Of a stretch of DNA of 64,000 nucleotides, positions 27,081-62,632 are shown in pieces. Each line of letters opens with the position of its first letter. The first letter of the stretch is position 1. The notes beneath the pieces are model-generated. The model did no database searches, had not been told where the DNA came from, and was given only the letters and a program-made list of their open reading frames with translations. The DNA comes from Promethearchaeota archaeon. Lineage in GTDB: Archaea; Asgardarchaeota; Lokiarchaeia; Sigyniarchaeales; SOKP01. A program made the position numbers and the translations under genes. Location of the stretch: NCBI GenBank assembly GCA_004524535.1, contig SDNY01000003.1:7138-71137 (forward strand), given 5' to 3'.

Positions 27081-27128
27081 TTATAATTCTAAGAAATTTT
27101 TCAATTTTGATATTTGATGAGGATTCAT
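27081..27128 (-). repeat. trpG/pabA 3'-end relic
   Basis: MNPHQISKLKNFLEL*; same codon count as the consensus MKPHGMQILKNFLEL*. Confidence 0.8.
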
Positions 27129-27204
27129 TTCATTATTGCATAAATTTCTTTAGCAAGTGCCAATTTATATAATTACAACTAAAGTAAAAATTAAGACATC
27201 TAAA

Positions 27205-28353
27205 ATGCCGGATATAATAATATTATCGGGATATAGAAGCGATTGGTTAGAAATTAAAAGAATTGAACAAGCCTCAGAGGATTTAGGATACTCACATCAA
27301 ATATTTTCTGTGGAGGATATTGGTTGGGCTTTGCTGAATCCTATAAAGAGTTATAAAAAAGACTCAGCTATTATTAACCGAATAGGCTTAATGTCTCAAG
27401 TAAATTATATTCAACCAATGATAACATTCAATGGGTATGAATTATTTAATAATCCCTCCGTTACAAATATATGTGATAATAAAACACTGACTACTGCATG
27501 CTTTGAAGCAGCAGGGATTCAGTCAACACCAACAATCTGGATTCCTATCACAAATCATCCAAGATTGAAAGTTAGGGAGATTAGAAAATCAATTGTAGAT
27601 ACAATTGAAAGCCAGTTTGAATATCCCGTTGTAATTAAACCAACTGGGGGGGGTCGAGGCTGGAAGGTAACATTTCTTAAAAACCGGGAAGAATTAGATG
27701 AATATTTATTTAATGATGAGAGAATCCTTGCAAATCCATGGGGGTTATATGTTCAACAATATAAATCTCATATTGCTGATATTAGAGTCGTCGTTGGTAA
27801 AAAGAAAGGCTCGCCTTTAGAAATCTTTGCCGCATTATTTAGAATACCCATGAAGGAATGTATTGTGGCAAACACCTCTCAAGGTAACCCTTCAGTTAAA
27901 TTCGAAATCTCCGATAGAATAAAATCTTTCTCATTTAAAATGTGCCAGTCTGTGTTGGACGGTGCCACTAAATTGGATGGGGTTAAAGATCGGGGCATTC
28001 TTTTAGGGATTGATATATTAGTTAATTCCGATGATATAGATCTAAGAAATAATATAAGAGATCTTGGAAACCAACTAAAAAGTTCGGAAGAATTCAAATT
28101 GACTCACATGAAAAAACGATTTAAAGTAGATTTTGAAGACAAAGATAAAAAATTCCATTCAGATATGGATAGGTATATGAACTTAGAGATCTATCATGAA
28201 ATAAAAGAGTTGCTTATTGATGGAACTAGCAAGGCAAATCTTTTTGCGAGTGAAGCTAATGCTACAATTGATTTTGGGGATCTAACACATGTATTTAGCG
28301 AAGGTAAAGTAGCTCGTGGAATTGTGGAATGTGCTGTTAGCAATTTAGAATAA
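27205..28353 (+). CDS. RimK/LysX/ArgX-type ATP-grasp ligase with a long C-terminal insertion
   Basis: CDNKTLT, PVVIKPTGGGRG, YVQQY, DIRVVV, GIDIL...SEAN. In an operon with lysZ and lysW. Confidence 0.85.
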   Translation: MPDIIILSGYRSDWLEIKRIEQASEDLGYSHQIFSVEDIGWALLNPIKSYKKDSAIINRIGLMSQVNYIQPMITFNGYELFNNPSVTNICDNKTLTTACFEAAGIQSTPTIWIPITNHPRLKVREIRKSIVDTIESQFEYPVVIKPTGGGRGWKVTFLKNREELDEYLFNDERILANPWGLYVQQYKSHIADIRVVVGKKKGSPLEIFAALFRIPMKECIVANTSQGNPSVKFEISDRIKSFSFKMCQSVLDGATKLDGVKDRGILLGIDILVNSDDIDLRNNIRDLGNQLKSSEEFKLTHMKKRFKVDFEDKDKKFHSDMDRYMNLEIYHEIKELLIDGTSKANLFASEANATIDFGDLTHVFSEGKVARGIVECAVSNLE

Positions 28354-28374
28354 TAAAACAGGAAGTTAAGAAAG

Positions 28375-29184
28375 ATGTCAGAAAAGATTGTTATTAAAGT
28401 GGGTGGAGATTTAGTAAAGGAAAATTTAGATTTTCTAATCTCAGATTTAGTAAAATTAAATGCTGAAAACAAGAAAATAATTTTATGTCATGCGGGAGCC
28501 GATGTAATTACAACAGTGGCTGAAAAGATGGGTAAACCCCAGATTTTTACTCACTCTACCAAAGGTTATAAAGCTCGTTATGTAGACGAGGAAACCAGAG
28601 ATATTTATATTATGGTGGTTGCGGGCCTAAATAATAAACGCCTTGTAAAAGAAATGCTTGCTAAGGATCTCCCAGCTGTTGGGATATCGGGAGTAGATGG
28701 GGGACTAATATTAGCTGAAAGATTTAAGAAAGCAATGGTTATTTTGAATGGGAAAAGAAAGCTTAAGGATAATTACACGGGGAAACCAACCAAAGTAAAT
28801 ACCAAATTAATCGAAACTCTCTGGGAGAAAAATTATATTCCAGTTATAGCTTCTGTTGCTATCAGCGAAGATAATGAGATTATTGGCGGTGATAGTGATA
28901 GGATGTCTGATGCAATCGCAGTGGCGACTAAAGCAGATAAACTCATACTTTTAACAGATGTTGATGGAGTTTTAGATAAAAATAAGAACCTTATTAATCA
29001 TATAAATAGGCAAAATTCTGAATTAATCCTTGAAAATGTGAGTGGAGGTATGAAAACCAAGGTTATTGTTGCCCTAAAATCTGCCAGTGAAGGTATTAAA
29101 CAAGTTATTATCGCTTCTGGGTTACGAGAGAATCCAATTATCAAAGCTCTTAATAATGAGAATTGTACCATTATAACTGATTAA
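28375..29184 (+). CDS. lysZ: [LysW]-aminoadipate/[LysW]-glutamate kinase (ArgB/LysZ family)
   Basis: IVIKVGG, SGVDGG, IPVIASVA, LLTDVDGV, GGMKTKV. Confidence 0.88.
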   Translation: MSEKIVIKVGGDLVKENLDFLISDLVKLNAENKKIILCHAGADVITTVAEKMGKPQIFTHSTKGYKARYVDEETRDIYIMVVAGLNNKRLVKEMLAKDLPAVGISGVDGGLILAERFKKAMVILNGKRKLKDNYTGKPTKVNTKLIETLWEKNYIPVIASVAISEDNEIIGGDSDRMSDAIAVATKADKLILLTDVDGVLDKNKNLINHINRQNSELILENVSGGMKTKVIVALKSASEGIKQVIIASGLRENPIIKALNNENCTIITD

Positions 29185-29258
29185 CTTTAATTTGCGCCAA
29201 AAAATAAAAATAGTATCTAAAATTTAATTTATTATTATAATTAATAACGGTGATATAT

Positions 29259-29474
29259 ATGGCTGAAAAAATTTATGAGTCTACAAAAAAAGAAGGTGGT
29301 AAGTTTAAATTGGAATGTTCCGAATGCTACTTTGAAAATCTGATTGAAGATCCAGAAGTAGACGATGTTATTGAATGTCAGGATTGTGGGTCTCCCTTCA
29401 CTATTGTAGATGTCTCTGACGATAAAATCAAGTTCAAAGCTGTCGTCTTTGACGAAGAAGAATGGAGAGAGTAA
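29259..29474 (+). CDS. lysW: LysW amino-group carrier protein with variant C-terminus
   Basis: CSEC...CQDCG Zn ribbon, acidic, ends EEEWRE. GGTGA + 5 nt + ATG 29259. Confidence 0.85.
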   Translation: MAEKIYESTKKEGGKFKLECSECYFENLIEDPEVDDVIECQDCGSPFTIVDVSDDKIKFKAVVFDEEEWRE

Positions 29475-29536
29475 TTTAAAGTCCATGGATTATCTCTTCC
29501 TACGCGCTTTTTTTGTGTTGCCCAACTAGACTGTGA

Positions 29537-29594
29537 TAATTCTAAAAAATTTTTCAACATTTAGCTTCATTTTTATTGATTCAGCATGGAAATG
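29537..29594 (-). repeat. trpG/pabA 3'-end relic with internal deletion
   Basis: HFHAESIKMK / MLKNFLEL in two frames. Confidence 0.8.
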
Positions 29595-29714
29595 GTAATA
29601 CAATAGATTATATTCGTTAAAATTTGACAAGAATGTAAGAGTAATACTAAATTATAAAAAAGTATGAAAAATAAGTTTAATTAATCACAATTAGTAAAAT
29701 TTAATTTTATCATT

Positions 29715-30308
29715 ATGTCAGATTTAGTTGTAAAATCAATTGGAATCGTAAAGAATAAGGCGAATAAAGAAGTTTTAAAATATTCAAATAAAGATATAAA
29801 ATTAGATCTTGATACGGCATTAAATCAAGGTAGTGATTTAATAAAATCCAAGATTTTAATAAAAGAGGAATATATTGATTGTTTGGATGGAATTGAAGAT
29901 TTTTCTCACATCCTTGTATTTTTTTGGACCAATAAAGTTCCAGAGAAAGCTCGCCAACTCAAGAAAGTACACCCCGCAGGATTAAGGAAAATGCCAATTA
30001 AAGGAATTTTTGCTACTAGATCACCAGTGAGACCTAATCCAATTGGTATAACGACAGTCAAATTAATCGAAAGGAAAGCTAACATGTTAATTGTCGAGGG
30101 ATTAGATGCTATAGACAACACACCTGTAATTGATATAAAACCACATATGCCCTTTTATGATTCTCCAGTTAATGTTAAACTAGCAGATTGGCTATATAAA
30201 GTAATGGATGAATTAAAAAAATTGACTCAAAACTCTGATCTGGACGACTCATCAAATCCATATTCATTTGATATCCGTTCTCATCCTTGTATTGATACCA
30301 GAGGATAG
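29715..30308 (+). CDS. tsaA: tRNA m6t6A37 methyltransferase TrmO/TsaA family
   Basis: GIEDFSHILVFF, GIFATRSPVRPNPIG, LDAIDNTPVIDIKP. Confidence 0.9.
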   Translation: MSDLVVKSIGIVKNKANKEVLKYSNKDIKLDLDTALNQGSDLIKSKILIKEEYIDCLDGIEDFSHILVFFWTNKVPEKARQLKKVHPAGLRKMPIKGIFATRSPVRPNPIGITTVKLIERKANMLIVEGLDAIDNTPVIDIKPHMPFYDSPVNVKLADWLYKVMDELKKLTQNSDLDDSSNPYSFDIRSHPCIDTRG

Positions 30309-30480
30309 AAATTTTAAAAGCTAATATCCTAATATTATATATATTCCTTTATTATTTATAGATTCTAACACTCGATTTAGCTCTAATTCAGTCATCTTTA
30401 TTATTTTTAAAAAGTATAAAATTAAATATATTAGAATTGATATTAAAATACCAAATAAATTAATTAAATAATGGTTTTTT

Positions 30481-31689
30481 ATGCCTTATAAAGGGGGTTT
30501 TTTGCCTGGGAGATATCCCATAAAAGATTTACGCCGGTCTCGCATTATTAAGATAGCCCCTGATGTTTGGGAGATTGAGGGGTACCTTTCTAACAACTTT
30601 TTCTTAAAGCCACCAACTTGTAATATTTATGTTTTACGGGATGAAGATATGGTTTTATTACTTGATACTGGAACATATCCATATTATAGAAATATAATAT
30701 TGAAAATTCTTGAAAAGTTTAGAAAAGAAGGGGCAAAGGAACTTGTTTTATTACAAGGTCATGGCCATTTCGACCATGTGGCAAATAATGATGTAATTTA
30801 TGAAACTAAATATGAAAAAATCCGTTTCCTCCTTCCGAAAATTGAATTGAGTACAATAGACCTATCCTATCATTGGACACATGATTTTTATGATCGGGAA
30901 GCCTATTATGATCCATATGATTTAGTCCCCCTAAAAATCACGGGTGTCCTCAAAATCTCTAATAGATTTTCCAGAAGATTAGCACGATTTGTTTTGGATA
31001 AATTAATTAAGTTTTATTTCAGAGGGATTAAAACTATGACGGAAAAAGCAGAATTACTTACGAATGAAAACCAAATAAAAAAGACTTATGGTGACGTTGA
31101 ATTTTTTGGTTGGGAGATTGGACGCTTTTTCGCAATTCATGATGGAACACATACACCCGGACATATTTCTCTTTATGATCCTAAAAATAAACTCTTTCTT
31201 ACAGGAGATGCAACTGTAGAAATTAATCCTGCGTTCTTTAATAGTAATTTAAATAACTGTATTGAAATGATGGGCAAGTTCAGATCTTTCGCAGAACAAG
31301 GATTTGTAGAAATTGCAAATGACAGTCACAGAAGTGCTATTTGGGCAAAAGAACTTTCAGAGAAATATAAATACAAACCATTAGATCCTATACAATTAGT
31401 TGATATTGCTAGAGGTAAGGAGGAATGTGTAAGATTTTTCCATACTTATGAAAGATACTTTATCGCAATTAAACAGGTTGTCTTAAAGATTTTAAAAAAG
31501 TTAGGGAGCGCAACTGTGTCTGATATCGTAGAACAGATCAAATATTCAAATCATCCTGCGGTGAAAATGAAAGTTGCATTAAAATTCCCTAATATTCCTT
31601 CCCGGTTAGACGTATTAGTTGCTTGTGTTCTAAAAGAAAACAAGATTCCTCATAAGAAAATTGGTAAAAAAATTGTTTATTCTTTATAA
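30481..31689 (+). CDS. Metallo-beta-lactamase fold hydrolase
   Basis: LLDTG, HGHFDH, HTPGH, LTGDA. Confidence 0.88.
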   Translation: MPYKGGFLPGRYPIKDLRRSRIIKIAPDVWEIEGYLSNNFFLKPPTCNIYVLRDEDMVLLLDTGTYPYYRNIILKILEKFRKEGAKELVLLQGHGHFDHVANNDVIYETKYEKIRFLLPKIELSTIDLSYHWTHDFYDREAYYDPYDLVPLKITGVLKISNRFSRRLARFVLDKLIKFYFRGIKTMTEKAELLTNENQIKKTYGDVEFFGWEIGRFFAIHDGTHTPGHISLYDPKNKLFLTGDATVEINPAFFNSNLNNCIEMMGKFRSFAEQGFVEIANDSHRSAIWAKELSEKYKYKPLDPIQLVDIARGKEECVRFFHTYERYFIAIKQVVLKILKKLGSATVSDIVEQIKYSNHPAVKMKVALKFPNIPSRLDVLVACVLKENKIPHKKIGKKIVYSL

Positions 31690-31833
31690 GCAATAGCAAT
31701 AGCTTCATTTTAATAAATAATACATATAATTAATTCTGATGCTACATTATAAAACTCACATATTAGCAATAAAATTTCTAATAATAGATGTATAAATAAT
31801 TCTATAACAATTAAAAAAATCTGATGAATTTTA

Positions 31834-33300
31834 ATGGTAAACGCAATATTAATTGTACTTGATACACTAAGACAGGATCATGTCGGATGCTATGGCAATA
31901 CGTGGATAAAAACACCGCATTTAGACGAGTTTGCCAAGGAAGCTGTGAAATTTACAAAAATGTATCCTGATTCACTCCCAACGCTTCCCGTGCGAAAAGC
32001 CATCTATACTGGGAAGAGGGTCTTTCCTTTTACAGATGATAAGCTAGGAGAGACTAAATCTGGGCGGGGAGACTTTATTGGTAATGCTCTCGGCGCACCT
32101 GGTTGGGGTTCCATTTCAGAATCGCATGATACTTTGGCTGAACGATTTCAGCGAAAAAAATATATCTCTGCATTGTTCTCTGATGTATATCACCAATTTA
32201 AACCTGGATATAATTTTCAGCGTGGATTTACTCAATGGGAATGGATCCGTGGACAAGAAGAAGATGCTTTTCTTTCTGGTCCAGAAATTTCTAACGAGGA
32301 TCTCCAAAAATATCTTACTTCCAAACAGCAAGGAACTACATCAGGAACTGTTTTTGCAAAATTCATGATGGAACAGTTTTTAAAAAATACACGCTGGTGG
32401 CGCTCTGAAACTGATACCTTTCCTGCCCAAGTATTTCGCAAAGCTGGAGAATGGTTAGATCTAAACCTAGATGCTCTAATAAAGGGTAAAGGATTTATAA
32501 CTGTGGAATCGTTTGATCCACATGAACCTTGGAATCCTCCTCTTCATTATATTCGAATGTATGAAAAAGATCCAGATTGGGAAAAGGGTTGCCAAAAAAT
32601 TACACACTCTTTATATGGCCCAGCAGATATTCTCTCAGAACAAGAACTCAAGAACTTAAAGACACGCTATGCCGCAGAAGTCTCGCTTGTCGATACATGG
32701 TTTGGGTATTTCATAGAATATATTAAGAGGATTGGGATTTGGGATAATTCAATCATCGTTGTCGTTTCGGATCACGGACATATGTTAGGGGAGCACGGGC
32801 TAATTGCAAAGGCTGCTAATCCCCTGGGGCGAGAAGTAGCTGATCTTGTTGCTATGATTCGATTCCCTGGAGGTGAAATGGCAGGAAAAACTTGCGATAA
32901 GTTTTGTTATCATCATGATATTGCTGCTACGATATGTAATGCATGTAAAATCTCTTACAAAGATATGGATGGAAAGGATCTATTCCCTTTAGTTAAAGAT
33001 GATAAGCTGAATTATTATGATCATGTTTCCATAGCATGGGGAGGCTCCGTTGCAGTATATAATAATGATTTCTGGTATAATGGATATATATGGGATATTG
33101 AAGAAGGCAGTTTGTTTGATGTAAAGAAGGATCCCAAATTGAATAAAAATATCATTTCAAAAGCTCCAGACAAGGCAAAAGAGCTATTAAAGCTCTGCTG
33201 GGAGGACGCTCGTGAGCCAATTGATATGGATTTCATGCGCCAATTTAAAGACCGACTCGGGTGCACTCCTGTAACTAAAGGATTAACCAGAAATGACTAA
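31834..33300 (+). CDS. Sulfatase-like hydrolase (alkaline phosphatase superfamily) with Thr at the nucleophile position
   Basis: LIVLDTLRQD, PTLPVRKAIYTG, DPHEPW, VSDHG. Confidence 0.85.
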   Translation: MVNAILIVLDTLRQDHVGCYGNTWIKTPHLDEFAKEAVKFTKMYPDSLPTLPVRKAIYTGKRVFPFTDDKLGETKSGRGDFIGNALGAPGWGSISESHDTLAERFQRKKYISALFSDVYHQFKPGYNFQRGFTQWEWIRGQEEDAFLSGPEISNEDLQKYLTSKQQGTTSGTVFAKFMMEQFLKNTRWWRSETDTFPAQVFRKAGEWLDLNLDALIKGKGFITVESFDPHEPWNPPLHYIRMYEKDPDWEKGCQKITHSLYGPADILSEQELKNLKTRYAAEVSLVDTWFGYFIEYIKRIGIWDNSIIVVVSDHGHMLGEHGLIAKAANPLGREVADLVAMIRFPGGEMAGKTCDKFCYHHDIAATICNACKISYKDMDGKDLFPLVKDDKLNYYDHVSIAWGGSVAVYNNDFWYNGYIWDIEEGSLFDVKKDPKLNKNIISKAPDKAKELLKLCWEDAREPIDMDFMRQFKDRLGCTPVTKGLTRND

Positions 33301-33427
33301 AAAAAATTTAAAGATATAATTGGAGAGGACTAATAAAATAAATAGAATATAATGATAAAATCTAGCACTGAAAATTATTATATTATCATTATATCTAAAT
33401 AACTATAATTTAAACAAATTACAAAAA

Positions 33428-34864
33428 ATGTTAAGTGATATGAATAAGGAAGATATTTGCTATATGCCCGCTTGGCAGATGGTAGAAAAGATAAGAACAC
33501 AAGAATTATCCTCCCAAGAGATAACTGAGATCATAATAGAGAGAATTGAAAAGATAAATCCAAAATTAAATTCCTATTGTACTACAACTTTTGACCTAGC
33601 AAGAAAAATGGCAAAGAAAGCTGATGATCGAGCAAAAACTGGTGAAAATGTCGGATTATTGAATGGAATTCCTACATCCATTAAAGATACTATGGATATT
33701 AAAGGAATTCGTACCACGTATGGTTCTAAGTTTTTTGAACACCATATTCCTAAGGAGACTACCGTGGATGTGCAACGCCTTATTGATGCAGGATGCGTAA
33801 TCTTAGGAAAGACTAATAACTCTGAGTTTGCGTTTTTTGGCGTTACTAATAATGAAGTATTTGGCGTTACCAATAATCCTTGGAATTTGGAAAGAACGTG
33901 TGGTGGATCTAGTGGTGGTGCTGGGGCATCAGTTGCAGCAGGAATTAGCCCTCTAGCACTAGGGTCTGATGGAGGGGGATCTATTAGAATTCCAGCTAGT
34001 TTAAATGGAATCTATGGTTTAAAACCTAATTTTGGGAGAATACCAATTTATCCAAGAAATGGACTTGGAGGCTTTACCGTTTGTGCTAATGGTCCAATGA
34101 CAAATTATGTAAAGGATGCGGCATTAATGCTGGATGTTTTGAAGGGATTCCATGAAGCAGATAGGGATGTCCTACCAGATGATGGTGTCAGCTATTTTAA
34201 GAAGGTAAATGAAAAACCAAATAAATTAAAAATAGCATTTTCCCTAGATTTAGGTAATACTAAACAAATCGAGCCAGAGGTAGAAAAAGCAGTAACAGAT
34301 TCTGTTCAAAAGTTTGAAGAATTAGGCTGGACGGTTGATACACCAAAATCTCGATTAAGACCTCCTACTTGGGCATTCAATACTACTTATACTGCAAATG
34401 CCGCTTATAACTTAGGACCTTATTTACAAGAAAACAGAGAATTATTAGGGTCTGAATTGGTTAAAAGTATTGAAGTAGGATTGACTCATTCAGCTGTAGA
34501 TCTGCTCAATGCATTTAATGCAAGAAAAAACTTCTATGAAAAAATGTATCACTTCATGAAAAATTATGATGTTTTAATAACCCCAACGCTTTCAGTCACA
34601 GCATTTCCTCATGGAATCTTGTATCCTGCAATAATTAATGGTAAAGGAGTTCCACCCACTGGTTGGCAACCAAATACATGGCCTTTTAATCTAACAGGTC
34701 ACCCTGCGGCTTCAATTCCTTGTGGGTGGTCAGAAGAGGGACTTCCCATTGGAATGCAAATCATAGGGCATCGATTTGATGAGTTAACAGTGCTGCAGGT
34801 TTCTCAAGCTTTTGAAGAAATAGCCCCATGGCAAGACAGGAAACCAAATCTATTCCTCCGATAA
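33428..34864 (+). CDS. Amidase signature family enzyme
   Basis: SIKD, GKTN, CGGSSGG, GSDGGGSIRIPAS. Confidence 0.93.
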   Translation: MLSDMNKEDICYMPAWQMVEKIRTQELSSQEITEIIIERIEKINPKLNSYCTTTFDLARKMAKKADDRAKTGENVGLLNGIPTSIKDTMDIKGIRTTYGSKFFEHHIPKETTVDVQRLIDAGCVILGKTNNSEFAFFGVTNNEVFGVTNNPWNLERTCGGSSGGAGASVAAGISPLALGSDGGGSIRIPASLNGIYGLKPNFGRIPIYPRNGLGGFTVCANGPMTNYVKDAALMLDVLKGFHEADRDVLPDDGVSYFKKVNEKPNKLKIAFSLDLGNTKQIEPEVEKAVTDSVQKFEELGWTVDTPKSRLRPPTWAFNTTYTANAAYNLGPYLQENRELLGSELVKSIEVGLTHSAVDLLNAFNARKNFYEKMYHFMKNYDVLITPTLSVTAFPHGILYPAIINGKGVPPTGWQPNTWPFNLTGHPAASIPCGWSEEGLPIGMQIIGHRFDELTVLQVSQAFEEIAPWQDRKPNLFLR

Positions 34865-34886
34865 ATGAAATAATAGTCTGCTAATT

Positions 34887-36107: not shown

Positions 36108-36303
36108 TCTAATTACTTACTTTAAAATATTCTTTTAATTGTTGTAGATTAGCACTAAATTAATTGTTTTTGATAAAAATTTAAAAATTGAAAAGATGAT
36201 AAGAAATTAATATTAACAATAATGATGAATTTGAATTCTATCTTAAGAAACAACCCCCACCATGGCAATTATAGAAGTATCTAATCCAGCATTAAAGCAT
36301 TAT

Positions 36304-38298: not shown

Positions 38299-38318
38299 CT
38301 TTTAAATTTAAATAGTAA

Positions 38319-38387
38319 TAATTCTAAGAAATTTTTTAGGATTTGCATGCCGATGGGCTTTATTCTGATGGATTCGGGTTGGAATTG
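38319..38387 (-). repeat. trpG/pabA 3'-end relic
   Basis: QFQPESIRIKPIGMQILKNFLEL, 23 uninterrupted codons. Confidence 0.9.
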
Positions 38388-51934: not shown

Positions 51935-51985
51935 CTGAAATGCTTTATAATTTTTTGCACTTGCATTTTTCCATAAAATAGAAAG

Positions 51986-54217: not shown

Positions 54218-54304
54218 AATTTTTCACAGATAAAAGCTATTATATTATATTGAATCTTTTAACTATTTAATCTCTTTTATACTAATAAATATTAGGGATG
54301 AATA

Positions 54305-56089
54305 ATGGGAAAAATTCTTAGAATAAATTTAGATAATAAAGATATTTCTTATGAAGAAATCCAAGCTGAGGATGAAGAAAAATTTTTGGGTGGTATGGGA
54401 GTTGCAACCTCTATACTTACGCGAGAAGTAGATCCAAAGATAAATCCTTTTGACGGAGAAAACCTTCTTATTTTTTCTGTTGGTCCTTATTGTGGAACTG
54501 CTGTGCCTTATTGCGGAAGACATTTTGTAATAGCCAAATCGCCCCTCACAAAAATAATAGGGGAAGCTTCCTCAGGAGGTTTTTTTGGAAAAGAATTAAA
54601 ATGTGCGGGATTTGATTTAGTTATAATTAAAGGGAAAAGCGAAGAACCCGTTTATTTATGCATTAAAGATGGAGAAGCTGAGATTTTAAGTGCAAAAGAC
54701 TTATGGGGATGTGGAACTCAAGAAACTACAGAAAAATTAAAGGAGCTTCAGGACGATGATAAAATTAAGGTTGCCACTATAGGGATTGCGGGGGAAAATC
54801 TTGTGAATATCGCTTGTATTATTAACGATAACCATCATGCTGCTGGACGATGTGGATTAGGTGCTATCATGGGAAGCAAAAAGTTAAAAGCTATTGTTGT
54901 TAAAGGTACCGGAAAAGTCCAAGTTGATAATAAAGAAAAATTAAATGAAGCTGCAAAAGAGATAAGAGAAATTATAAAAAACGACGCTTTAGCCATGGTT
55001 ATGGCGGATTCTGGAACTCCAGTACATATTGACTCCATGTACAGCGTTGGAGATGTAATTATTAAGAATTATACAACAGGCCGATGGGTTGGAATAAAAA
55101 ACCTTGGAGCGAAAGCGATTAATGCTCGTGGGGAAGTTAAAAAACATGGGTGCTTTAATTGTCCAACAGCTTGTAGAGGTTTTATTGAATATAATGGTGA
55201 ATGGGTTTCTCGACCAGAATATGAAACCCTTGGAATGATAGGATCTAATCTCCTCGTTGATGATTTAGAAACAGTTATAAAATGGAATTTGATAATAAAC
55301 GACTTAGGATTAGATTCTATCTCTTTAGGGGCAGTTATAGCATGTTTTCTTGAATCAATTGATCGAAAATTAATTGAATACGATATTCAGCAATTGGGGA
55401 TTTCTGAAGATCAAATTTGGGGGGCCATTGAACCAATTGAAAAATTAATCAATATGATTGCAAATCGCGAAGGAATCGGAGATGATCTTTCACAAGGTGT
55501 TCGAGCTTTCTGCGAAAAAAAGGGATTACCCGAGGAACTCTCAATGCATGGTAAAGGTCTTGAAGTCCCTGCTCATGAACCTCGAGCAAATAATTTAACC
55601 GCTTTAGATTACGCAACGACTCCAAGAGGTGCTTATCATTGTTATGAGCCGATGCATGTATCATCTTATATGAATCTTAAGGAAGAAATCAATTTAACCG
55701 GAGGTATTTATCGTTTTAGTAGCGATAAGGATGTAGCAGAAATTGTAATTAAAGTTCAAAATGGTAGCGAAGCATATTCAGCGTGTGGGGGATGTATTTT
55801 TGGATATTGGTTTACAAATAAACTTACACCCTGGGTTAATGCTCTAAATGCTATAACAGGTAGGTCTTATTCAATTGAATCGTGGATTGAAGCAGGAGAA
55901 AGAATATTCAATATGAAGAGAAGTTACAACCTCAAATGTGGAACAACTAAAGACGACGACACCTATGGAACTCGTTTTTCAACTCCACTAGATAAAGGAG
56001 GCACTAGGAAGAATGTTCCACCGCTACAAGATTTGCTTAAAGATTATTATGAGCTCCGTAGATGGGATAATGAGGGAAAACCTATTTAA
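54305..56089 (+). CDS. Aldehyde ferredoxin oxidoreductase family protein
   Basis: KSPLT...SSGG, AGRCGLGAIMGSKKLKA, CFNCPTAC, EYET, GLDSIS, YYELRRWD. Confidence 0.95.
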   Translation: MGKILRINLDNKDISYEEIQAEDEEKFLGGMGVATSILTREVDPKINPFDGENLLIFSVGPYCGTAVPYCGRHFVIAKSPLTKIIGEASSGGFFGKELKCAGFDLVIIKGKSEEPVYLCIKDGEAEILSAKDLWGCGTQETTEKLKELQDDDKIKVATIGIAGENLVNIACIINDNHHAAGRCGLGAIMGSKKLKAIVVKGTGKVQVDNKEKLNEAAKEIREIIKNDALAMVMADSGTPVHIDSMYSVGDVIIKNYTTGRWVGIKNLGAKAINARGEVKKHGCFNCPTACRGFIEYNGEWVSRPEYETLGMIGSNLLVDDLETVIKWNLIINDLGLDSISLGAVIACFLESIDRKLIEYDIQQLGISEDQIWGAIEPIEKLINMIANREGIGDDLSQGVRAFCEKKGLPEELSMHGKGLEVPAHEPRANNLTALDYATTPRGAYHCYEPMHVSSYMNLKEEINLTGGIYRFSSDKDVAEIVIKVQNGSEAYSACGGCIFGYWFTNKLTPWVNALNAITGRSYSIESWIEAGERIFNMKRSYNLKCGTTKDDDTYGTRFSTPLDKGGTRKNVPPLQDLLKDYYELRRWDNEGKPI

Positions 56090-56149
56090 CGAGCGACTGT
56101 GATTTCCTTTAGCTATTTCCATGTTTACATTCATATTTGCAAATTGGGA

Positions 56150-56500
56150 TTAATGGTGTTGAATTAACGCTATTCGGACTCCATTTGGATCTTCTAAGAA
56201 GGCAAGGGTCCCAACCGTTATTGGTATAGGTTCCATGGTGATTTTGGCACCTTTAGATTTGAGTTCTTTCACTGTGGTGTTTATATCTTCAACATCCATT
56301 CCCACCGAATACAAACCAGTTTCATATTCTGTATTTTTTATGAGCTCTATCATTGCATCCCCTTCCCCTTTTAATAATGTGATTTTTGTTCCAGGTTGGG
56401 GATTGTGTTGGCTATCTATTTCAAATCCCATAACTTTTGTGTAAAATTTAATTGACTCATCCATATCCTTAACTATTATGGTAGCGTATTTAACTTTCAT
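56150..56500 (-). CDS. VOC/glyoxalase family protein
   Basis: [40 protein letters not shown] + 6 nt + ATG. Confidence 0.92.
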
Positions 56501-56520
56501 ATTTTATCACCATATAATAT

Positions 56521-56539
56521 TTATTAACCAAGTTAATAA
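56521..56539. promoter_or_regulatory. 8-bp inverted repeat upstream of the VOC gene, possible operator
   Basis: TTATTAAC-CAA-GTTAATAA; near-identical copy at about 61737. Confidence 0.35.
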
Positions 56540-56571
56540 TTCTTATTTTTTAAATATCTATTTTCACTTTT

Positions 56572-56616
56572 GTATTCTAAGAAATTTTTTAATATATGCA
56601 TACCATGGGGCTTCAT
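56572..56616 (-). repeat. trpG/pabA 3'-end relic
   Basis: MKPHGMHILKNFLEY. Confidence 0.88.
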
Positions 56617-56734
56617 TCCTGAGGTTTTAAATACAAAAATCTTTATACAGATGATTTGGGATTCTTTATTTTATAAGCTATAAGTTCATAAATAACCCAC
56701 TACAAAAGTATCATATAAAAAATACAAAGAGGGA

Positions 56735-58264
56735 TTGAATTTGTACGATGCGATAATAATTGGAGCGGGAATAGGTGGGTTAACTTGTGCTGCGAAACTC
56801 GCTACTAGAGGAAAGGAGGTATTATTATTAGAAAAAATCCATCATATCGGAGGCACCAGCCACACATTTAATAGAAAAGGATATATTTTTCCAATGGGAC
56901 CTTTATCCTTCAGTTTCCCTGATGTCGTAGAGCAGATTTTGGAGGAAATAGGATTTGAAGGAGAGTTAAAATTTCAAAGAAACCATTTTCAGCTTCTCTC
57001 TCCCGATATAGATGTAATTTATTCAAAAGAATGGGAAAAATTTAAAGAAACTCTTCAAGGTCTATTTAAAGAAGAGAAAGATGGAATTGAAATGGTATTC
57101 AAAGAGTTGTCCATTGTGATCGATTCCATTTCAAAAGTTCAAGAGTGGCATCCCGATTATTTACTTGGAAAAAATAAGCAGAGAGCAGAAGAACAGATTA
57201 ATAGCTATCAAGAGCAGCTTGAAATAATTGAGAAATACGATCATTTAAGTTCCCGAGAGTTTTTAGATCGCTACTTGTCAAATGAAAGTTTGAAAAGATT
57301 GATTGGATCCCAAGGAACTTACTTACCGGTAATGTCAGTCGTGCATTTGGCATTTATGTGGAATGTAATGTCTATTAAGGGAATATGGTTTCCTTCGAAA
57401 GAAATTTCAGGAATTAATGAGATATTGCATGGAATATTTGAAAAGCATGGAGGAGTGACTATGCTAAGAACGCCAGTGAAAAAAATTTTTATTAATAATA
57501 ATCAAGCTACTGGCGTGGAAACTTTTGATGGGAAGAAATTTGCTGCTGACTGGGTTATCGCTAATGCAGATTATAAAAAAGTGATTTTAGAAATGATTGA
57601 TCCTAAGGAGTTAGAGAAGAATTTTCTAAAATCTGTCCAAAAAACACCTTACACTGGTTCTGAACTCTGTGTGTATCTCGGTATCGCACCTGAAAAGGTT
57701 GATCTAAAAAAAATTCGAACCAATCATCTTTTCTACCGCAGTGTATTAAACGAGGAATCTGCCAAAGATTTTATTGATTTTGCAAATAAGGAAATTGAAA
57801 TATGTCTATGGTCTAATAACTCCCTAAATCTTGTCCCATCAGGTAAAAAAAGTTTAGTATTAAGAGTTAACATGCCTTACTCCCATTGGGATCCTTGGCG
57901 TACAGGAGAGAAAAAGAGAAAACAAGGATATAGGGAATATAAGCGGGAGCTAGCTGAGAAATTAATAAAGACCGTTGAAGAAATTTTGCCAGGGTTATCA
58001 GAAGCAATCGAAGTTATGGAGATCGCAACCCCTCTAACCTATAGGGACTGGGGGCAGCGAACTAAAGGATCCATAGCGGGATGGGGGCGGGACGTTACAA
58101 AAGTTAGATTAAATAATAAATTACTAATAAAAACTCCTATTGATCACTTATTAATGGTAGGAATCTATTCAGTACTTGAACCTTTTTTAGGGGGATTTCC
58201 GGTTTCTATGTATACGGGTAGCTTGGCAGCAGAAATTGTTCTTACCGATGATTTAAATATTTGA
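56735..58264 (+). CDS. Phytoene desaturase-like FAD-dependent oxidoreductase
   Basis: IIGAGIGGL, LEK...GG, EIATPLTY..., GGFP. Confidence 0.88.
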   Translation: MNLYDAIIIGAGIGGLTCAAKLATRGKEVLLLEKIHHIGGTSHTFNRKGYIFPMGPLSFSFPDVVEQILEEIGFEGELKFQRNHFQLLSPDIDVIYSKEWEKFKETLQGLFKEEKDGIEMVFKELSIVIDSISKVQEWHPDYLLGKNKQRAEEQINSYQEQLEIIEKYDHLSSREFLDRYLSNESLKRLIGSQGTYLPVMSVVHLAFMWNVMSIKGIWFPSKEISGINEILHGIFEKHGGVTMLRTPVKKIFINNNQATGVETFDGKKFAADWVIANADYKKVILEMIDPKELEKNFLKSVQKTPYTGSELCVYLGIAPEKVDLKKIRTNHLFYRSVLNEESAKDFIDFANKEIEICLWSNNSLNLVPSGKKSLVLRVNMPYSHWDPWRTGEKKRKQGYREYKRELAEKLIKTVEEILPGLSEAIEVMEIATPLTYRDWGQRTKGSIAGWGRDVTKVRLNNKLLIKTPIDHLLMVGIYSVLEPFLGGFPVSMYTGSLAAEIVLTDDLNI

Positions 58265-58356
58265 AAATGTAGATAGATTCTTAAGATCCTTAACACAAAC
58301 AATGATAGAGCTTAATTATTAAGGCTTGAATTAAAACTTGTCCGAGAGCTTTAAAT

Positions 58357-58986
58357 ATGGTCACTTTAGATGAAAAGAGATTAAAGCAACGATTTCTACA
58401 TATGAATAAAGATCAAAAGCAAAAACTAAAATTTGAATCAAAATGGCATAGTATTGTAGCTTTTTTACATAAAAATCTGGGTTACAAAATCGCAAAAGTC
58501 GCAAGAATTGCTTCAAAAGCAAATGTAGAAGGTAATCGAGATAGTGATTTAGATATCATCTTTTATACAGCCCGGGATCAAAATCAAGATGAATTAGTAG
58601 CCGCAATGAGGAAGCTTATAAAAAAAAATTATAAAAAAGAAGCTCAGATAAAAAAACTCAATATTGGTGTCCAAATATCCTTTAAAAGCACAGATTGTGT
58701 CATCAATGTAATTTATTTAGCTAAAGAGCAATTTGTTTCAAAGTACAAGGAAGCCCTACATAGGGGATTAGTTCCAAAAGAAAAACAAATTGCGATAATC
58801 CTCATTAAATATGCATTCTTTAAAGCCGCAATTGATTTCATAACTGGACCTGAGTTAGAAATCGCATGTATTACTTCTGAATGTAATACAATTAAAGGAT
58901 GTGTTAATGGCACTATTCGTCATTTTAGTGGTAAGCTTAATCAACAAGGAATTTCATTTAATAATATCTTAAAATTTCTAAGATGA
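58357..58986 (+). CDS. Degenerate Pol-beta superfamily nucleotidyltransferase (OAS/CD-NTase-like)
   Basis: ASKAN..GNRDSDLDIIF, then IILIK...ELEIA, resembling the IRLLK...LEL helices of OAS/CD-NTases. Confidence 0.5.
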   Translation: MVTLDEKRLKQRFLHMNKDQKQKLKFESKWHSIVAFLHKNLGYKIAKVARIASKANVEGNRDSDLDIIFYTARDQNQDELVAAMRKLIKKNYKKEAQIKKLNIGVQISFKSTDCVINVIYLAKEQFVSKYKEALHRGLVPKEKQIAIILIKYAFFKAAIDFITGPELEIACITSECNTIKGCVNGTIRHFSGKLNQQGISFNNILKFLR

Positions 58987-59021
58987 AGTATAAAGGATAT
59001 AAAGTTATGCCCAGAGAAGTT

Positions 59022-59054
59022 GTCGAGATGGAATTGGAGTCCTTCGACTGGAAT
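59022..59054 (-). repeat. trpG/pabA relic, upstream half only
   Basis: IPVEGLQFHLD. Confidence 0.8.
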
Positions 59055-59119
59055 TCATTAATTTTCATAAATATTATTTAAAAATAAAATTAAAATTTAC
59101 GTCTAACTTATAAAATGTA

Positions 59120-60763
59120 ATGAGTATTCTAATTAAAAATGGAACGATTGTAGATGGTACCGGTTCGAAACGGTTTAAAGGTGATATATTAATTGAAGGT
59201 GCTTCAATTGCAAAGATCGGCGAGGATTTATCAAAGGAGGGTGCAGAAATAATTGATGCACAAGGTTTAGTGGTCTGTCCCGGATTTATTGATATACATG
59301 TTCATGCAGATTTAACCTTATTAGAGGTACCGGAGCTTAAAGAATATCTACTACAAGGATGCACTACTTTGACTGGTGGACATTGTGGATTTGGTATAAC
59401 ACCTGCTAATGATATGACTAGAAAATACTATATGGATATTGCTACACGCTTACTTGGGGTAAAACCTGAATTATGTAATGATTTAATTTCATTCAAAAAT
59501 AAGTTTGAAGAGATAAAGTCATCTGCCAATTTTGCTATGTTTGTGCCTCAAGGTAATCTCAGAATAATAGTCTGCGGAAATTCTGAAGAACCTGCAACAC
59601 CCAAACAGTTAAAACAAATGCAAGATATTTTACGGAAAGAGTTAGAAGCAGGTGCATTTGGAATGTCAACAGGTTTGGCTTATGTACCAGGCGATGTAAC
59701 CGAAACCGAAGAATTAATTGAACTTTCAAAGATAGTTGCAGAGTTTGATGGCTTATATACTAGTCATATGCGCAATGAAGGAGCACATGTAATGGATATT
59801 GGTATGGCAGAAGTCTTTAGGATTGCAAAGGAGGCAGGAGTTCGTGGACATATTTCACATTGGAGTGCTGTTGGAGCAGATCCTATTTCTACAATCCCAA
59901 AATTAATAAAATATATGGAGGACTCACAAGCAGAAGGATTGGATTTAACAGCAGATATTACCACATACAACGATGCAGTTACACCTTTAGCCTTCATAAT
60001 ATTCAATACATGGGTATTTGAAAACTTTAAAGAGAATTTAACAAATCCAGACACACGTGAGAAGATAAAAGAAGAAATGTATCAAAAAATTGCGTCAATT
60101 TTCCTTGATAATGCCCCATGGTTCTTAAAATTAATTCCCAAGCGGGTTATAAAGAAGTTAATCTGGAAAATCTTATCCAAAAAGGTAACAATACTTAGTA
60201 CACCAGTTCGACCTGAATTACAAAATACAACCCTAATTCAAGCAGTGAAAAAATACTATCCTCAACAGAAATTGCTTGATGGATTAATAGATCTTATTAG
60301 AGATGAAGAAGGCGGCATTATATTTACAATGAAGACCAAGGATGAAGAAAATGGGATGTTACCTCTCTTTAGACGCCCATACGTGTGCGCTAGTTCGGAT
60401 GGAATTGTAGTAACAAATCCTAAACAAAACGTTCATCCTCGAAATTATGGTTCATTTCCACGTGTAATTCAAAGATGGGTTCGAGAGGAGAGCTGGATAG
60501 ATTTAGAAACTGCTATTAAAAAGATGACATCTTTACCTGCAGAACAGTTACAAATCCCCGATAGAGGGTCCCTCAAAGAAGGAATGAAAGCAGACATAAC
60601 AATATTTAACTATGATAAAATAGAAGATATTGCAACAGTTAGTAATGGACGTCAACATCCTAAAGGAATCGAATATGTCATCGTTAATGGTGGTCTTACT
60701 GTAAAAAATGGAGAACATACTGGATTAAAGAATGGTGAATTCTTAATACATAAAAAGAAATGA
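59120..60763 (+). CDS. N-acyl-D-amino-acid deacylase family amidohydrolase (II)
   Basis: PGFIDIHVH, HCG, SHMR, SHW, ASSDG, HPRNYGSFPR; close paralog of the 50285 gene. Confidence 0.92.
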   Translation: MSILIKNGTIVDGTGSKRFKGDILIEGASIAKIGEDLSKEGAEIIDAQGLVVCPGFIDIHVHADLTLLEVPELKEYLLQGCTTLTGGHCGFGITPANDMTRKYYMDIATRLLGVKPELCNDLISFKNKFEEIKSSANFAMFVPQGNLRIIVCGNSEEPATPKQLKQMQDILRKELEAGAFGMSTGLAYVPGDVTETEELIELSKIVAEFDGLYTSHMRNEGAHVMDIGMAEVFRIAKEAGVRGHISHWSAVGADPISTIPKLIKYMEDSQAEGLDLTADITTYNDAVTPLAFIIFNTWVFENFKENLTNPDTREKIKEEMYQKIASIFLDNAPWFLKLIPKRVIKKLIWKILSKKVTILSTPVRPELQNTTLIQAVKKYYPQQKLLDGLIDLIRDEEGGIIFTMKTKDEENGMLPLFRRPYVCASSDGIVVTNPKQNVHPRNYGSFPRVIQRWVREESWIDLETAIKKMTSLPAEQLQIPDRGSLKEGMKADITIFNYDKIEDIATVSNGRQHPKGIEYVIVNGGLTVKNGEHTGLKNGEFLIHKKK

Positions 60764-60923
60764 TATGTATAAAAATATTTAAGCAATTTTCTTATTCTCA
60801 AATAGACTATTTGATACTATAATTAGCAACAATTCCAATAGTTTATCTTATTTCTTTTACCATGACTATATAAAAATTTAATGATAATACGAGCTTATTA
60901 TATTCGATTCGTTAAAGATAAAC

Positions 60924-61217
60924 TTATTCTAAACGGTCATCCCATTTCTTTGGTTTTTGGTTTAGTTGCATTACCGCCACAATTATGACTTCTCCCTTTT
61001 TAATGTGATAAATGATTCCATAAGGGAATCGCTGAGTGAGGCATCTTCGACAGTTTTCTGAAAATTTTGTCCAAGCTTTAGGAAATTGTAATATTCGTTG
61101 AATAGTGGAGTATACTTCCTCAGAAAAATTCAGTCCTAATCCGGGGCGAACACCTTCATAATAGTCAATCGAAGTATCTAACTCTTCGATGGCTAAAGGA
61201 TGAAATCTATAGTTCAT
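60924..61217 (-). CDS. ParE/RelE family toxin
   Basis: YRFHPLAIEELD..IDYY, RRCLTQRFPYGIIY, IVAVM. Confidence 0.9.
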   Translation of the reverse strand: MNYRFHPLAIEELDTSIDYYEGVRPGLGLNFSEEVYSTIQRILQFPKAWTKFSENCRRCLTQRFPYGIIYHIKKGEVIIVAVMQLNQKPKKWDDRLE

Positions 61218-61456
61218 TTATCAAACCGTTTTCGTATGTCTTTAAAGACCTGTTCACCAGGAATTAGTTTTGTTTTACCAGATTCAATCTCAGAAAGGCG
61301 CCGTTCAATTTCCTCATCCCATAATTTATCTACTTCTTCTTGGATTGGTACATTAAGGCTCCTTATTAATTCATCAATCAGTTGCGTTCGTAGATGTGAA
61401 GGGAGCGATAAAGCTTCTTGGAGTATTTTATCGTTTAATTCAGACAAATTTATCAT
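61214..61456 (-). CDS. Addiction module antitoxin
   Basis: EALSLPSHLRTQLIDELIRSL...WDEEIERR...G. Real start ATG 61456; the longer track ORF reads through the repeat. Confidence 0.85.
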   Translation of the reverse strand: MINLSELNDKILQEALSLPSHLRTQLIDELIRSLNVPIQEEVDKLWDEEIERRLSEIESGKTKLIPGEQVFKDIRKRFDK

Positions 61457-61512
61457 CCAATCAAATTTTCTAATATAAGAATGACATCTTATTCTTATAT
61501 CTTTTTCTATTT

Positions 61513-61602
61513 TTTTAATTCCAAGAAATTTTTTAGAATTTGCATCCCATAGGGTTTCATTTTTATCGACTCGGGATGGAATTGGAGCTCTTCGACTGGA
61601 AT
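61513..61602 (-). repeat. trpG/pabA 3'-end relic, longest copy
   Basis: IPVEELQFHPESIKMKPYGMQILKNFLEL, 29 uninterrupted codons; stop changed to AAA. Confidence 0.93.
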
Positions 61603-61800
61603 TCATTAATTTTGATATTATCTAAAAATAAGATTAAAATATACATATAACTAATAAGAATGTAATGAGTATGAATCCATATCCTCAACTATTATGGTAG
61701 CTTATTTAAATTTCATATTTTATCACCATTTAATATTTATTAACCAATTTAATAATTCTTATTTGTCTTAATTTCTATGTTCACATTATTATTCTAAGAA
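61603..61800. pseudogene. Chimeric relic: aminoacylase upstream region and start fused to a VOC 5' end and upstream region
   Basis: 61575-61672 aligns to 59027-59127; 61674-61800 aligns to about 56459-56583. Confidence 0.85.
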
Positions 61801-61840
61801 GTTGGCAAAAGCATAAATATTATCTTGAAAAATTGAAAAA

Positions 61841-61963
61841 ATGAAGCTTATTATTGATTCTAACATATTAATCTCTAGCTTATTAAAAGATTCAAACACT
61901 AACGAACTACCTTTTAATGAATCATTCACCTTTTATTTATCTAAAATTGTTCTGATGAGATAA
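61841..61963 (+). pseudogene. Truncated PIN domain toxin
   Basis: MKLIIDSNILISSLLKDS...FTFYLSKIVLMR*; DEIRK continues in another frame. Confidence 0.7.
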
Positions 61964-62003
61964 GAAAATAAAAAATAAATTATTAGAACACTTATTTTAA
62001 AAT

Positions 62004-62213
62004 ATGGAATTAGATAAATTTCCTGATATAATCAAATTATCAACTAAGGAAAAGATCTCGCTTGTTGAAAATTTATGGGATAGCATTAGATCTGAGATTG
62101 AATCTAACCCAATCCCTAAAAGTCATGAGCAAGAACTAGACAAGCGTGAAAAGACGCTAAATAGGAATACTCTTTTATCTATTGAAGACCTTAAAAAGCG
62201 AATTAAAAAATGA
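62004..62213 (+). CDS. Addiction module antitoxin
   Basis: LSTKEKISLVENLWDSI...ELDKR. Confidence 0.85.
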   Translation: MELDKFPDIIKLSTKEKISLVENLWDSIRSEIESNPIPKSHEQELDKREKTLNRNTLLSIEDLKKRIKK

Positions 62214-62527
62214 GTTCAGACCATTCTTTAAGATTTCACCCCGAAGTTGAAGGAGATCTTCAAAAAATCTACTCTTGGTACGAAGAAAACCTTACTGGTC
62301 TTGGACATGACTTTCTTCAAATCTTTTATTCAAGTATAGAAATGATAACGGAAAATCCTCTTCAATTTCCAAAAATATATAAAAATTATCACCGTTACTT
62401 ATTGCGAAAGTTTCCGTATGCGCTTTATTATATCGTTAAAAATGATTTAATTATTGTTATGGGCATATTTCACCATTCTCGTGATCCTAAAAAAATAAAA
62501 TCTGCTTTAGTAAATCGAACTGATTAA
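62210..62527 (+). CDS. ParE/RelE family toxin
   Basis: LRFHPEVEGDL..IYSWY, HRYLLRKFPYALYY, GIFHHSRDP; ATGA overlap. Confidence 0.9.
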   Translation: MSSDHSLRFHPEVEGDLQKIYSWYEENLTGLGHDFLQIFYSSIEMITENPLQFPKIYKNYHRYLLRKFPYALYYIVKNDLIIVMGIFHHSRDPKKIKSALVNRTD

Positions 62528-62563
62528 ACTAAGAATTGATGCTTAAACAAGGTAAATAGTTAA

Positions 62564-62632
62564 TTATAATTCCAAGAAATTTTTTAGAATTTACATTCCA
62601 TAGGGTTTCATTTTTATCGACTCGGGATGGAA
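62564..62632 (-). repeat. trpG/pabA 3'-end relic
   Basis: FHPESIKMKPYGM*ILKNFLEL*, including the natural stop. Confidence 0.93.

Follow-up and report, generated by a model that had tools for sequence, protein, structure and literature searches.

Truncated trpG ends in an accessory-gene island of a Lokiarchaeon: diverged alleles at a putative landing site for foreign cassettes

Gene ends as sites of insertion

Co-oriented partial copies of the 3' end of a target gene arise, by the textbook route, from integrase-driven integration, and integrative and conjugative elements (ICE), integrative and mobilizable elements (IME) and cis-mobilizable elements (CIME) accrete at gene 3' ends, as does the Streptococcus thermophilus ICESt1 family at fda. 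The orphan modules of rhs and cdiA are thought to arise as incoming DNA recombines in the conserved part of the gene and displaces the old end. Among further examples, SGI1 integrates at trmE (PMC8409611), and the tycheposon islands of Prochlorococcus have a tRNA as target, carry tyrosine recombinases and retain fragmented integrases (10.1101/2020.12.28.424599). Moreover, integron cassette arrays have also been reported in Archaea (PMC9668308). The subject of the present analysis is a stretch of 64,000 nucleotides of contig SDNY01000003.1, assigned to a Promethearchaeota archaeon (the window), in which 11 truncated copies of the 3' end of trpG, a gene of the tryptophan operon, stand between modules of unrelated genes. 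These copies are referred to as relics, and the relics together with their modules as the array.

The array resembles each of these systems in part. Like the tycheposon islands, it is a flexible island beside a conserved gene, with scattered partial copies of the target and a cargo of niche genes, in which successive integrations would push older material outward; unlike them, it targets the 3' end of a protein gene, resides in an Asgard host, has no recurrent recombinase and consists mostly of units of about 1 kb. With ICE/IME/CIME accretion it has in common a protein-gene 3' end as the attachment site, a target gene that is kept intact, internal att-like sites separating the accreted units, and the persistence of units that lack an integrase. 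However, ICE, IME and CIME have near-identical att repeats of fixed length and an integrase at one composite end, whereas the trpG relics range from 27 to about 560 nt, are saturated with synonymous differences and are accompanied by no integrase.

Integrons are approached in the short, mostly one-gene cassettes with a median spacing of 909 bp, in the recurring separator that looks like a recombination site, in the frequency of toxin-antitoxin cassettes, and in the exchange and reordering of cassettes between genomes. In contrast to integrons, the genes of the array lie on both strands with their own leaders, and the repeat is a gene end with three-periodic coding variation rather than an attC hairpin; single-stranded folding of five relics, two of them on both strands, gave z scores of -0.37 to +1.38 relative to shuffled sequences, so that no excess of attC-like folding was evident. 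No intI or attI was found beside the array, upstream of which are trpE and trpG. As in rhs/cdiA orphan arrays, the 3' region of a main gene recurs behind it in 5'-truncated copies, but in those systems the displaced ends are the cargo (toxin tips with immunity genes), whereas the trpG relics run through the conserved TrpG C-terminus to the stop codon without a variable tip and merely tag unrelated metabolic, transport and toxin-antitoxin neighbours. The array lacks a defining feature of each likened system, having no integrase, no attC and no variable tip, and the literature searched contains no account of a hotspot at the trpG end in Asgard archaea.

Relics of diverged trpG alleles

The window is Asgard (Promethearchaeota, Lokiarchaeon) DNA: the best relatives of its TBP, translated from 15333-15965, belong to metagenome-assembled genomes (MAGs) of Promethearchaeota (Lokiarchaeia; n = 80, up to 82% amino acid identity), and its right end matches a contig (L081) of the MAG TEKIR_6S at 98.4% identity across 3.7 kb, two relics included. 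In relatives the source gene of the relics encodes a 197-aa protein directly after trpE and closes the trp operon. The intact TEKIR_6S protein passes the model TIGR00566 (trpG_papA) with 175.7 bits against a cut-off of 121.05, the best models of the 498-aa open reading frame (ORF) upstream of it are TrpE, and the name TrpG rather than PabA rests on this operon context. The sequences cited in the original prediction are in-frame, minus-strand copies of this class-I glutamine amidotransferase C-terminal coding end (..VEGVQFHPESIKMKPYGMQILKNFLEL and stop codon), with the motifs QFHPES...ILKNFL in frame. A hidden Markov model (HMM) of 594 nt, built from 19 intact Lokiarchaeial trpG genes and searched against the window with nhmmer, yielded nine relics; comparisons with relatives added two, and all 11 lie on the minus strand (11/11). 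Nearly all end at the trpG stop codon, and the nhmmer matches all fall within the last 90 nt of the gene (HMM 506-593).

The differences among these copies follow the codon. It had been noticed that they differ at synonymous positions, and this was borne out: variable sites among the window relics number 6/28, 8/29 and 20/29 at codon positions 1, 2 and 3 (Fisher p=1.4e-4), and the minimum parsimony steps, 8, 8 and 29, are far from an even spread (binomial p=2.5e-5; 1e-5 to 9e-5 when near-duplicate or decayed copies are left out). Pooled over relic pairs (Nei-Gojobori), the proportions of synonymous (pS) and nonsynonymous (pN) differences are 0.65 and 0.11, to be compared with 0.75 and 0.10 for intact alleles of different MAG species over the same codons. 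The individual codons read as first described, the Gly codon being GGA, GGG, GGT, GGA and GGC at 62597-62599, 61546-61548, 56602-56604, 50205-50207 and 38349-38351 (minus strand; the positions originally given, 62564, 61513, 56569, 50188 and 38316 or close to them, are the left ends of the copies and not the codons), the Ile before LKN being ATT, ATA or ATC, the Leu CTA, TTA or TTG, and the Ser of HPES TCG, TCC or TCA. Relative to the intact consensus the relics differ at 18, 12 and 57 sites of codon positions 1, 2 and 3, and 65 of these 87 departures are bases found at the same site in intact alleles. In addition, 38 relics of other genomes show the three-periodic variability of 26 intact alleles, with slight extra noise at positions 1 and 2.

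Comparison with a nearly resident allele points to where this divergence accrued. Measured against the intact trpG of TEKIR_6S, a 98%-identical relative, the window relics have a pS of 0.5-1.1 and a pN of 0-0.2, and two long relics with open frames just past the window on the gene side, read from TEKIR_6S, have a pS of 0.9-0.98 and a pN of 0.03-0.08; the latter are thus as diverged from the intact gene as alleles of different MAG species are from each other. The intact alleles nearest to the relics are those of other MAG species and still differ by 8-21%. The relics accordingly are samples of different, deeply diverged functional trpG alleles of foreign origin, and their differences are mostly synonymous because nearly all of the divergence accrued in working trpG genes of different lineages. 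The original prediction had offered two origins for each copy, a once-working gene end or a different donor allele; the second is favoured by the divergence from TEKIR_6S, and the first, taken as the lineage's own former ends, is not, as discussed below.

From left to right, the minus-strand catalogue begins with r16051 (16051-16078; YILKNFLEL and stop; nhmmer 16052-16078, HMM 567-593, E 0.82), the most distal and a minimal trpG end that carries the exact end motif. It is followed by r27081 (27081-27130; MNPHQISKLKNFLEL and stop; nhmmer 27083-27130, HMM 545-592, E 0.044), with several nonsynonymous changes, whose orthologues of the 'MNP' type come after the same module, termed B below, in contigs L097 and L233, and by r29535 (29534-29594; FHAESIKMK..MLKNFLEL; nhmmer 29536-29594, HMM 523-592, E 6.5e-6), with a frame-breaking 11-nt deletion. 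Relic r38316 (38316-38393; FQFQPESIRIKPIGMQILKNFLEL, without a stop codon; nhmmer 38318-38393, HMM 517-592, E 7.6e-14) is represented at the same position of contig L169 by a 27-nt stub only (ILKNFLAL and stop). The 3' remnant r39286 (39277-39306; KILKNFLTL) was recognized by alignment with an L169 relic (HMM 520-592) inside common flanks, relative to which 63 nt at its 5' side are deleted, so that 5' erosion is seen directly. Relic r50188 (50189-50222; MKPHGMQIIK..; HMM 544-577, E 0.0017) is decayed at both ends and has a fuller version in contig L106 (HMM 525-591).

Further to the right lie r56569 (56569-56618; MKPHGMHILKNFLEYKS; nhmmer 56575-56618, HMM 545-588, E 2e-7), r59023 (59023-59053; IPVEGLQFHL; HMM 506-536, E 0.055), which is a 5' part only with an upstream flank common to the next relic, and that relic, r61513 (61513-61601; IPVEELQFHPESIKMKPYGMQILKNFLELKK and stop; nhmmer 61516-61601, HMM 506-591, E 2.6e-19), the longest in the window and identical to its TEKIR_6S copy. 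A minus-strand stretch at 61675-61803, 94% identical to 56459-56586, is a truncated duplicate of a glyoxalase cassette, comprising a relic stub (NFLE and stop, 61786-61803), the leader, the first codons and a premature TAA, which shows intragenomic copying of a relic-plus-gene unit. The rightmost relic of the window is r62564 (62564-62633; FHPESIKMKPYGM, an in-frame TAA, ILKNFLEL and stop; nhmmer 62565-62633, HMM 525-593, E 1.8e-15). The catalogue exceeds the earlier list by the copies at 16051-16078 (left of the range then considered), 29534-29594, 59023-59053 and 39277-39306 and by the stub at 61786-61803.

As a set, the relic copies are far beyond chance: the 18-nt end motif has 10 matches with at most two mismatches against 0.88 expected, and 7 of the 10 are minus-strand relic ends. 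The three weakest nhmmer matches have the support of this motif and of orthologous longer relics in relatives. At 38321-38338 and 56574-56591 the reverse complement of the relic (plus strand) also reads ILRNFL(E/G/I), and the motif matches both strands because the DNA is nearly palindromic (AATTCTAA-N8-TTAGAATT). This 8-bp palindrome was considered as the core site of a recombinase and dropped as evidence: it is perfect in some alleles only, its five matches in the window at no more than one mismatch compare with 1.4 expected, its left arm varies with the Ile and Leu codons, and at its positions the relics are no more conserved than intact genes.

Arrays of the same kind are widespread among relatives. 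A scan with degenerate patterns, one genome per species, revealed intact trpG and relics in many Promethearchaeota MAGs, and in metagenomes 43 intact copies and 115 relics or partial copies were counted. The arrays begin directly 3' of an intact trpG and in its orientation (L173, L186, L202, L132 and others), and 146 of 147 copy pairs across 52 contigs are co-oriented, with the copy-to-copy spacing having an interquartile range of 662-2300 bp around its median. Between the relics are short, mostly single-gene cassettes (glyoxalase, esterase, amidohydrolase) as well as toxin-antitoxin pairs, the latter often forming the units nearest the gene (0.3-1 kb). The 3' boundaries of the relics are nearly constant (HMM 591-593, almost always the stop codon), and the 5' boundaries range from HMM 30 to 567. 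Fragments of trpE were found only upstream of intact trpG, and trpE is never duplicated; this arrangement ruled out whole foreign trp-operon fragments that were later trimmed by deletion.

Several individual loci stand apart. The sole oppositely oriented pair, in L168 (Ga0209977_10020500; 307-379, minus, and 1130-1205, plus), may reflect a local inversion between relics. L237 (Ga0114923_10002048) carries two full-length co-oriented trpG genes 10 kb apart (534-1126 and 10548-11140), followed by a relic. A Lokiarchaeial-type trpG relic is present in L095 (DATKTW010000155.1), labelled Nanopelagicaceae, and CP070739.1 (L107/L126), labelled Methanomassiliicoccales, has a trpE-trpG pair with 86-88% protein identity to that of TEKIR_6S; misbinning or mislabelling is the probable explanation of both labels.

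The window portion of the island measures 46.6 kb. On its distal, downstream flank is the TBP gene (15333-15965, minus strand; identified from its translation, relatives and L233), and beyond the right end of the window the array was extended through the TEKIR_6S contigs L081/L166, where it continues with relics covering HMM 342-593 and 206-592. In contig L233 a span of 4.65 kb takes in an intact trpG, the glyoxalase cassette, module B and the TBP orthologue, ordered as in the window, which has over 40 kb of additional modules in between. Upstream of the TBP orthologue in contig L230, exactly at the place of r16051, stands a longer relic (HMM 511-592). Therefore, the island lies between trpG and TBP. 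It is these two metagenome contigs that supply the link, trpG being beside TBP in none of the 80 TBP loci of relatives, most of which are paralogues or other contexts. Neither tRNA or tmRNA targets nor Rfam RNA families were detected in the window.

Proposed recombination at the trpG end and competing explanations

Modules are exchanged and relics are mosaic. Between flanks 92-97% identical to the window, L169 carries a different two-gene cassette between two relics in place of a cassette with a PIN-like gene. Two TEKIR_6S relics are about 75% identical over HMM 342-509 and 94% over 510-593, orthologous relics of TEKIR_6S and the MAG LW60_4 drop from 95% identity up to position 555 to 81% beyond it, and r62564 differs from its TEKIR_6S orthologue by five clustered differences (HMM 561-576) within flanks 98-99% identical, which is a 5-nt conversion tract. 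The mosaic breakpoints fall at about HMM 513-523, 556-561 and 577. Mosaic relics together with the module swap therefore indicate ongoing recombination in the last ~80 nt, with variable breakpoints.

From these observations it is proposed, with a probability of roughly 60%, that relic-tagged cassettes and modules are inserted through recombination within the final ~30-90 nt of trpG. In this group trpG closes the trp operon, and a flexible island adjoins its 3' end, into which new DNA would arrive as small modules, typically of one to three genes, each with a foreign trpG 3' fragment ending at the stop codon. The module would be inserted, by way of a circular intermediate, when this fragment undergoes a single crossover of the Campbell type with either the end of the resident trpG or a relic already present; trpG would stay intact, a co-oriented gene end lacking its 5' part would mark the module boundary, and repeated events would build the array. 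Relics would then serve as portable recombination sites, between which modules would be excised, swapped and re-inserted, while they themselves decay by point mutation, 5' deletion and gene conversion. We infer the single-crossover route, the circle and the catalyst, and for the catalyst, host homologous recombination on short, codon-constrained homology and a recombinase encoded elsewhere in the genome appear about equally plausible.

How Asgard archaea came by their many bacterial-type metabolic genes is still debated and bears on models of eukaryogenesis, and few mobile elements are known from these archaea. The locus offers a concrete and widely conserved hotspot of gene flow, a recurrent landing site for foreign cassettes that bring no integrase with them, where relic-tagged modules are common to, and reshuffled between, lineages, and where an island holds dozens of accessory genes, including katG, a sulfatase, an amidase, glycosidases, an aldehyde:ferredoxin oxidoreductase (AFOR), transporters and toxin-antitoxin pairs. 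Moreover, the relics are molecular fossils, each keeping a piece of a donor trpG, and the donors are traceable in principle. A bolder extension would be integron-like capture in Lokiarchaeia, in which the last ~30-90 nt of trpG are the landing site, truncated foreign ends act as cassette sites, and a recombinase encoded elsewhere or a hijacked host enzyme (XerA) moves cassettes within and between lineages; this remains a tentative proposal and is rather doubtful at present.

A number of points weigh against insertion by recombination at the trpG end. No full-length match to intact trpG exists anywhere in the 64-kb window, and the trpG of its genome is placed to the right of coordinate 64000 by orientation and relatives. 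Stretches of 27-90 nt with 80-90% identity would be poor substrates for homologous recombination, and the clustering of 5' boundaries at HMM 517-529 hints at a defined site. A recombinase present only once or twice beside relics could have been missed. As for carriers, three patterns of the trpG end had 0 matches in the 2.9 million viral contigs of IMG/VR, a search for viral or plasmid-like carriers, and no contig with terminal repeats, as expected of a circular form, occurred among 99 metagenome loci. LW60_4 lacks 56156-56679 (glyoxalase and relic) and 58995-62715, and both junctions are free of relics; simple indels thus contribute to the island as well, and to tell insertion from loss would take a dated phylogeny.

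The strongest competitor, possible though unlikely, is that the array consists of the remains of classical integrative elements (proviruses, plasmids, tycheposon-like or ICE/IME-like elements) whose own tyrosine integrase targeted the trpG 3' end via an attP mimicking it; later deletions would have removed the integrase genes and spared the cargo and the att relics. Such elements are the textbook source of co-oriented partial 3'-end copies, and the 5' boundary cluster and the many toxin-antitoxin pairs in modules would suit them. Serial integration with scattered partial tRNAs has also been described for Prochlorococcus (10.1101/2020.12.28.424599). However, Pfam and NCBIfam identified no integrase, transposase or recombinase in the 50 ORFs of the window, which encode metabolic, transport, regulatory and toxin-antitoxin functions; candidates among the Pfam-negative ORFs turned out to be radical-SAM, RDH-like, membrane and PIN-like proteins. 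Beside relics elsewhere (112+47+131 ORFs, 290 in all; Pfam), no recombinase is among the 25 most-hit families, each with at least two members; methyltransferases, hydrolases, GNATs, ferredoxins, dehydrogenases, URO-D, TrmO and MFS transporters are among the families listed. Over the roughly 340 ORFs of islands, in short, no recombinase recurs. At just 0.3-1 kb, the units closest to intact trpG are too small to encode an integrase, the relics vary in length and breakpoint instead of falling into a few fixed sizes, and no matching attP was found in the viral contigs.

Far less probable is that the relics are the lineage's own former trpG ends, displaced serially, their differences recording the evolution of the resident gene through time. 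The third-position bias alone would be compatible with such a history. Serial displacement, however, would give a pN/pS of at least 0.5 between relics, since the neutral time (ti+tj) is at least as long as the selected time (ti-tj), and the observed 0.18 speaks for foreign donors; likewise, the gene-side open-frame relics are already saturated relative to the near-resident allele, and the nearest intact alleles are those of other MAG species. An artefact of assembly or binning, in which repeats collapse or give rise to chimeric contigs, is hardly credible: MAG assemblies do break at relics, and the intact TEKIR_6S trpG lies 16 nt from a contig end, but junctions recur in independent assemblies (L081, as above; further junctions in L169, L112 and L233) and many contigs hold arrays contiguous with intact trpG. 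Finally, a single non-coding repeat or in-situ segmental duplication, spread in the genome and decaying neutrally, could be suspected from the short, AT-rich copies, some with stops or frameshifts, and is excluded by the concentration of changes at third positions, the match of most variant bases to polymorphisms of intact genes and the alignment of every copy to the end of a real gene.

The original prediction had placed the most complete copies, and the latest insertions, roughly at the right. The longest relic agrees (61513, 86 nt), whereas the next longest is at 38316 (76 nt) and the rightmost has an in-frame TAA replacing a Gln codon. In the window, relic length is related to position with a rho of 0.40 (p=0.29), and bases absent from all intact alleles, a proxy for decay, make up a growing share toward the left (rho -0.67, p=0.05); inclusion of the two longer TEKIR_6S relics gives a rho of 0.67 (p=0.02) for length and -0.77 (p=0.005) for the 5' boundary. 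Across the 52 contigs, the gene-proximal relic is the longer in 51 pairs and the shorter in 25 (p=0.004; the pairs are not independent). The polarity is thus a statistical tendency and not a rule, and differences between relatives at internal relics mean that array growth is not confined to the proximal end. Long repeats beside the gene may invite recombinational deletion, so that only short relics would last long.

Modules carried by the island

The most distal module, A (16079-27080), comprises a broken DUF454 gene, katG, two BcrAD/BadFG ATPases, two HGD-D dehydratase subunits, a variant radical-SAM protein and a TrmB-like regulator (Pfam, NCBIfam, composition); in L233 no module A separates module B from TBP. 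Its katG-like catalase-peroxidase (738 aa, 16908-19124, minus strand) forms a patch of 38-40% GC in a window of ~31%, which suggests recent acquisition from a GC-richer, probably bacterial, donor. The DUF454-like membrane protein gene (16234-16711, minus), beside the most distal relic, is apparently broken by a frameshift or stop. Module B (27131-29533; Pfam) consists of an ATP-grasp gene and an amino-acid kinase gene and recurs at 82-87% identity, in other contexts and adjoining relics, in L097, L233, L209, L236 and L194. Module C (29595-38315) contains TrmO, a metallo-beta-lactamase-fold protein, a sulfatase, an amidase, an MFS transporter and a CehA/McbA-like metallohydrolase (Pfam, NCBIfam), and its part at 31708-38279 is collinear with L169 at 92-97% identity.

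The small cassette at 38394-39276 (minus), replaced in L169, has a 171-aa PIN-like ORF and a short upstream ORF; the cassette has no Pfam or NCBIfam match, and PIN was called from reading the sequence. Homologues of the cassette adjoin relics in five metagenome contigs, with no evident link to a particular relic allele across them. Module D (39307-50188; Pfam, NCBIfam) carries an MFS transporter, a GH5 glycosidase, two URO-D-like genes, a DUF6036 nucleotidyltransferase pair, a 4Fe-4S/RDH-like protein and an esterase (49047-50120), the last of which, with its upstream relic, is common to L106 at 86% identity. Within it, a 47-nt repeat (44167-44213 and 46301-46347, 87% identical) lies just 3' of two minus-strand genes, the URO-D-like and the 4Fe-4S/RDH-like, and may be a terminator or regulatory site.

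Module E (50223-56568; Pfam) holds an amidohydrolase, a GH3 protein, an aldehyde:ferredoxin oxidoreductase and the glyoxalase cassette (56150-56500). The amidohydrolase (50267-51934) is in L253 a single-gene cassette with a relic on each side, and the unit of r56569 and glyoxalase is found in L233, L245 and L265 at 91-94% identity. Modules F (56619-59022; amine oxidase and a 209-aa ORF), common to LW60_4 (L112) at 96% identity, and G (59054-61512; amidohydrolase and a ParE/antitoxin pair) are followed past r62564 by a next module (62634-64000) with a DUF998 gene (62729-63511), all assigned with Pfam, and the array runs on past the window.

Four toxin-antitoxin-like modules are present in the island, two with ParE and antitoxin (60924-61478 and 62210-62527), one PIN-like (38398-38913) and one a DUF6036 nucleotidyltransferase pair (45359-46226); in relatives (L086, L147, L166), the small cassettes between relics are likewise most often pairs of the ParE or PIN type. 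Outside the island, a minus-strand gene at 1973-5020, adjoining ABC-2 permease genes, encodes a 1015-aa fusion of prenyltransferase alpha-alpha-toroid repeats with an ABC ATPase domain, an unusual architecture.

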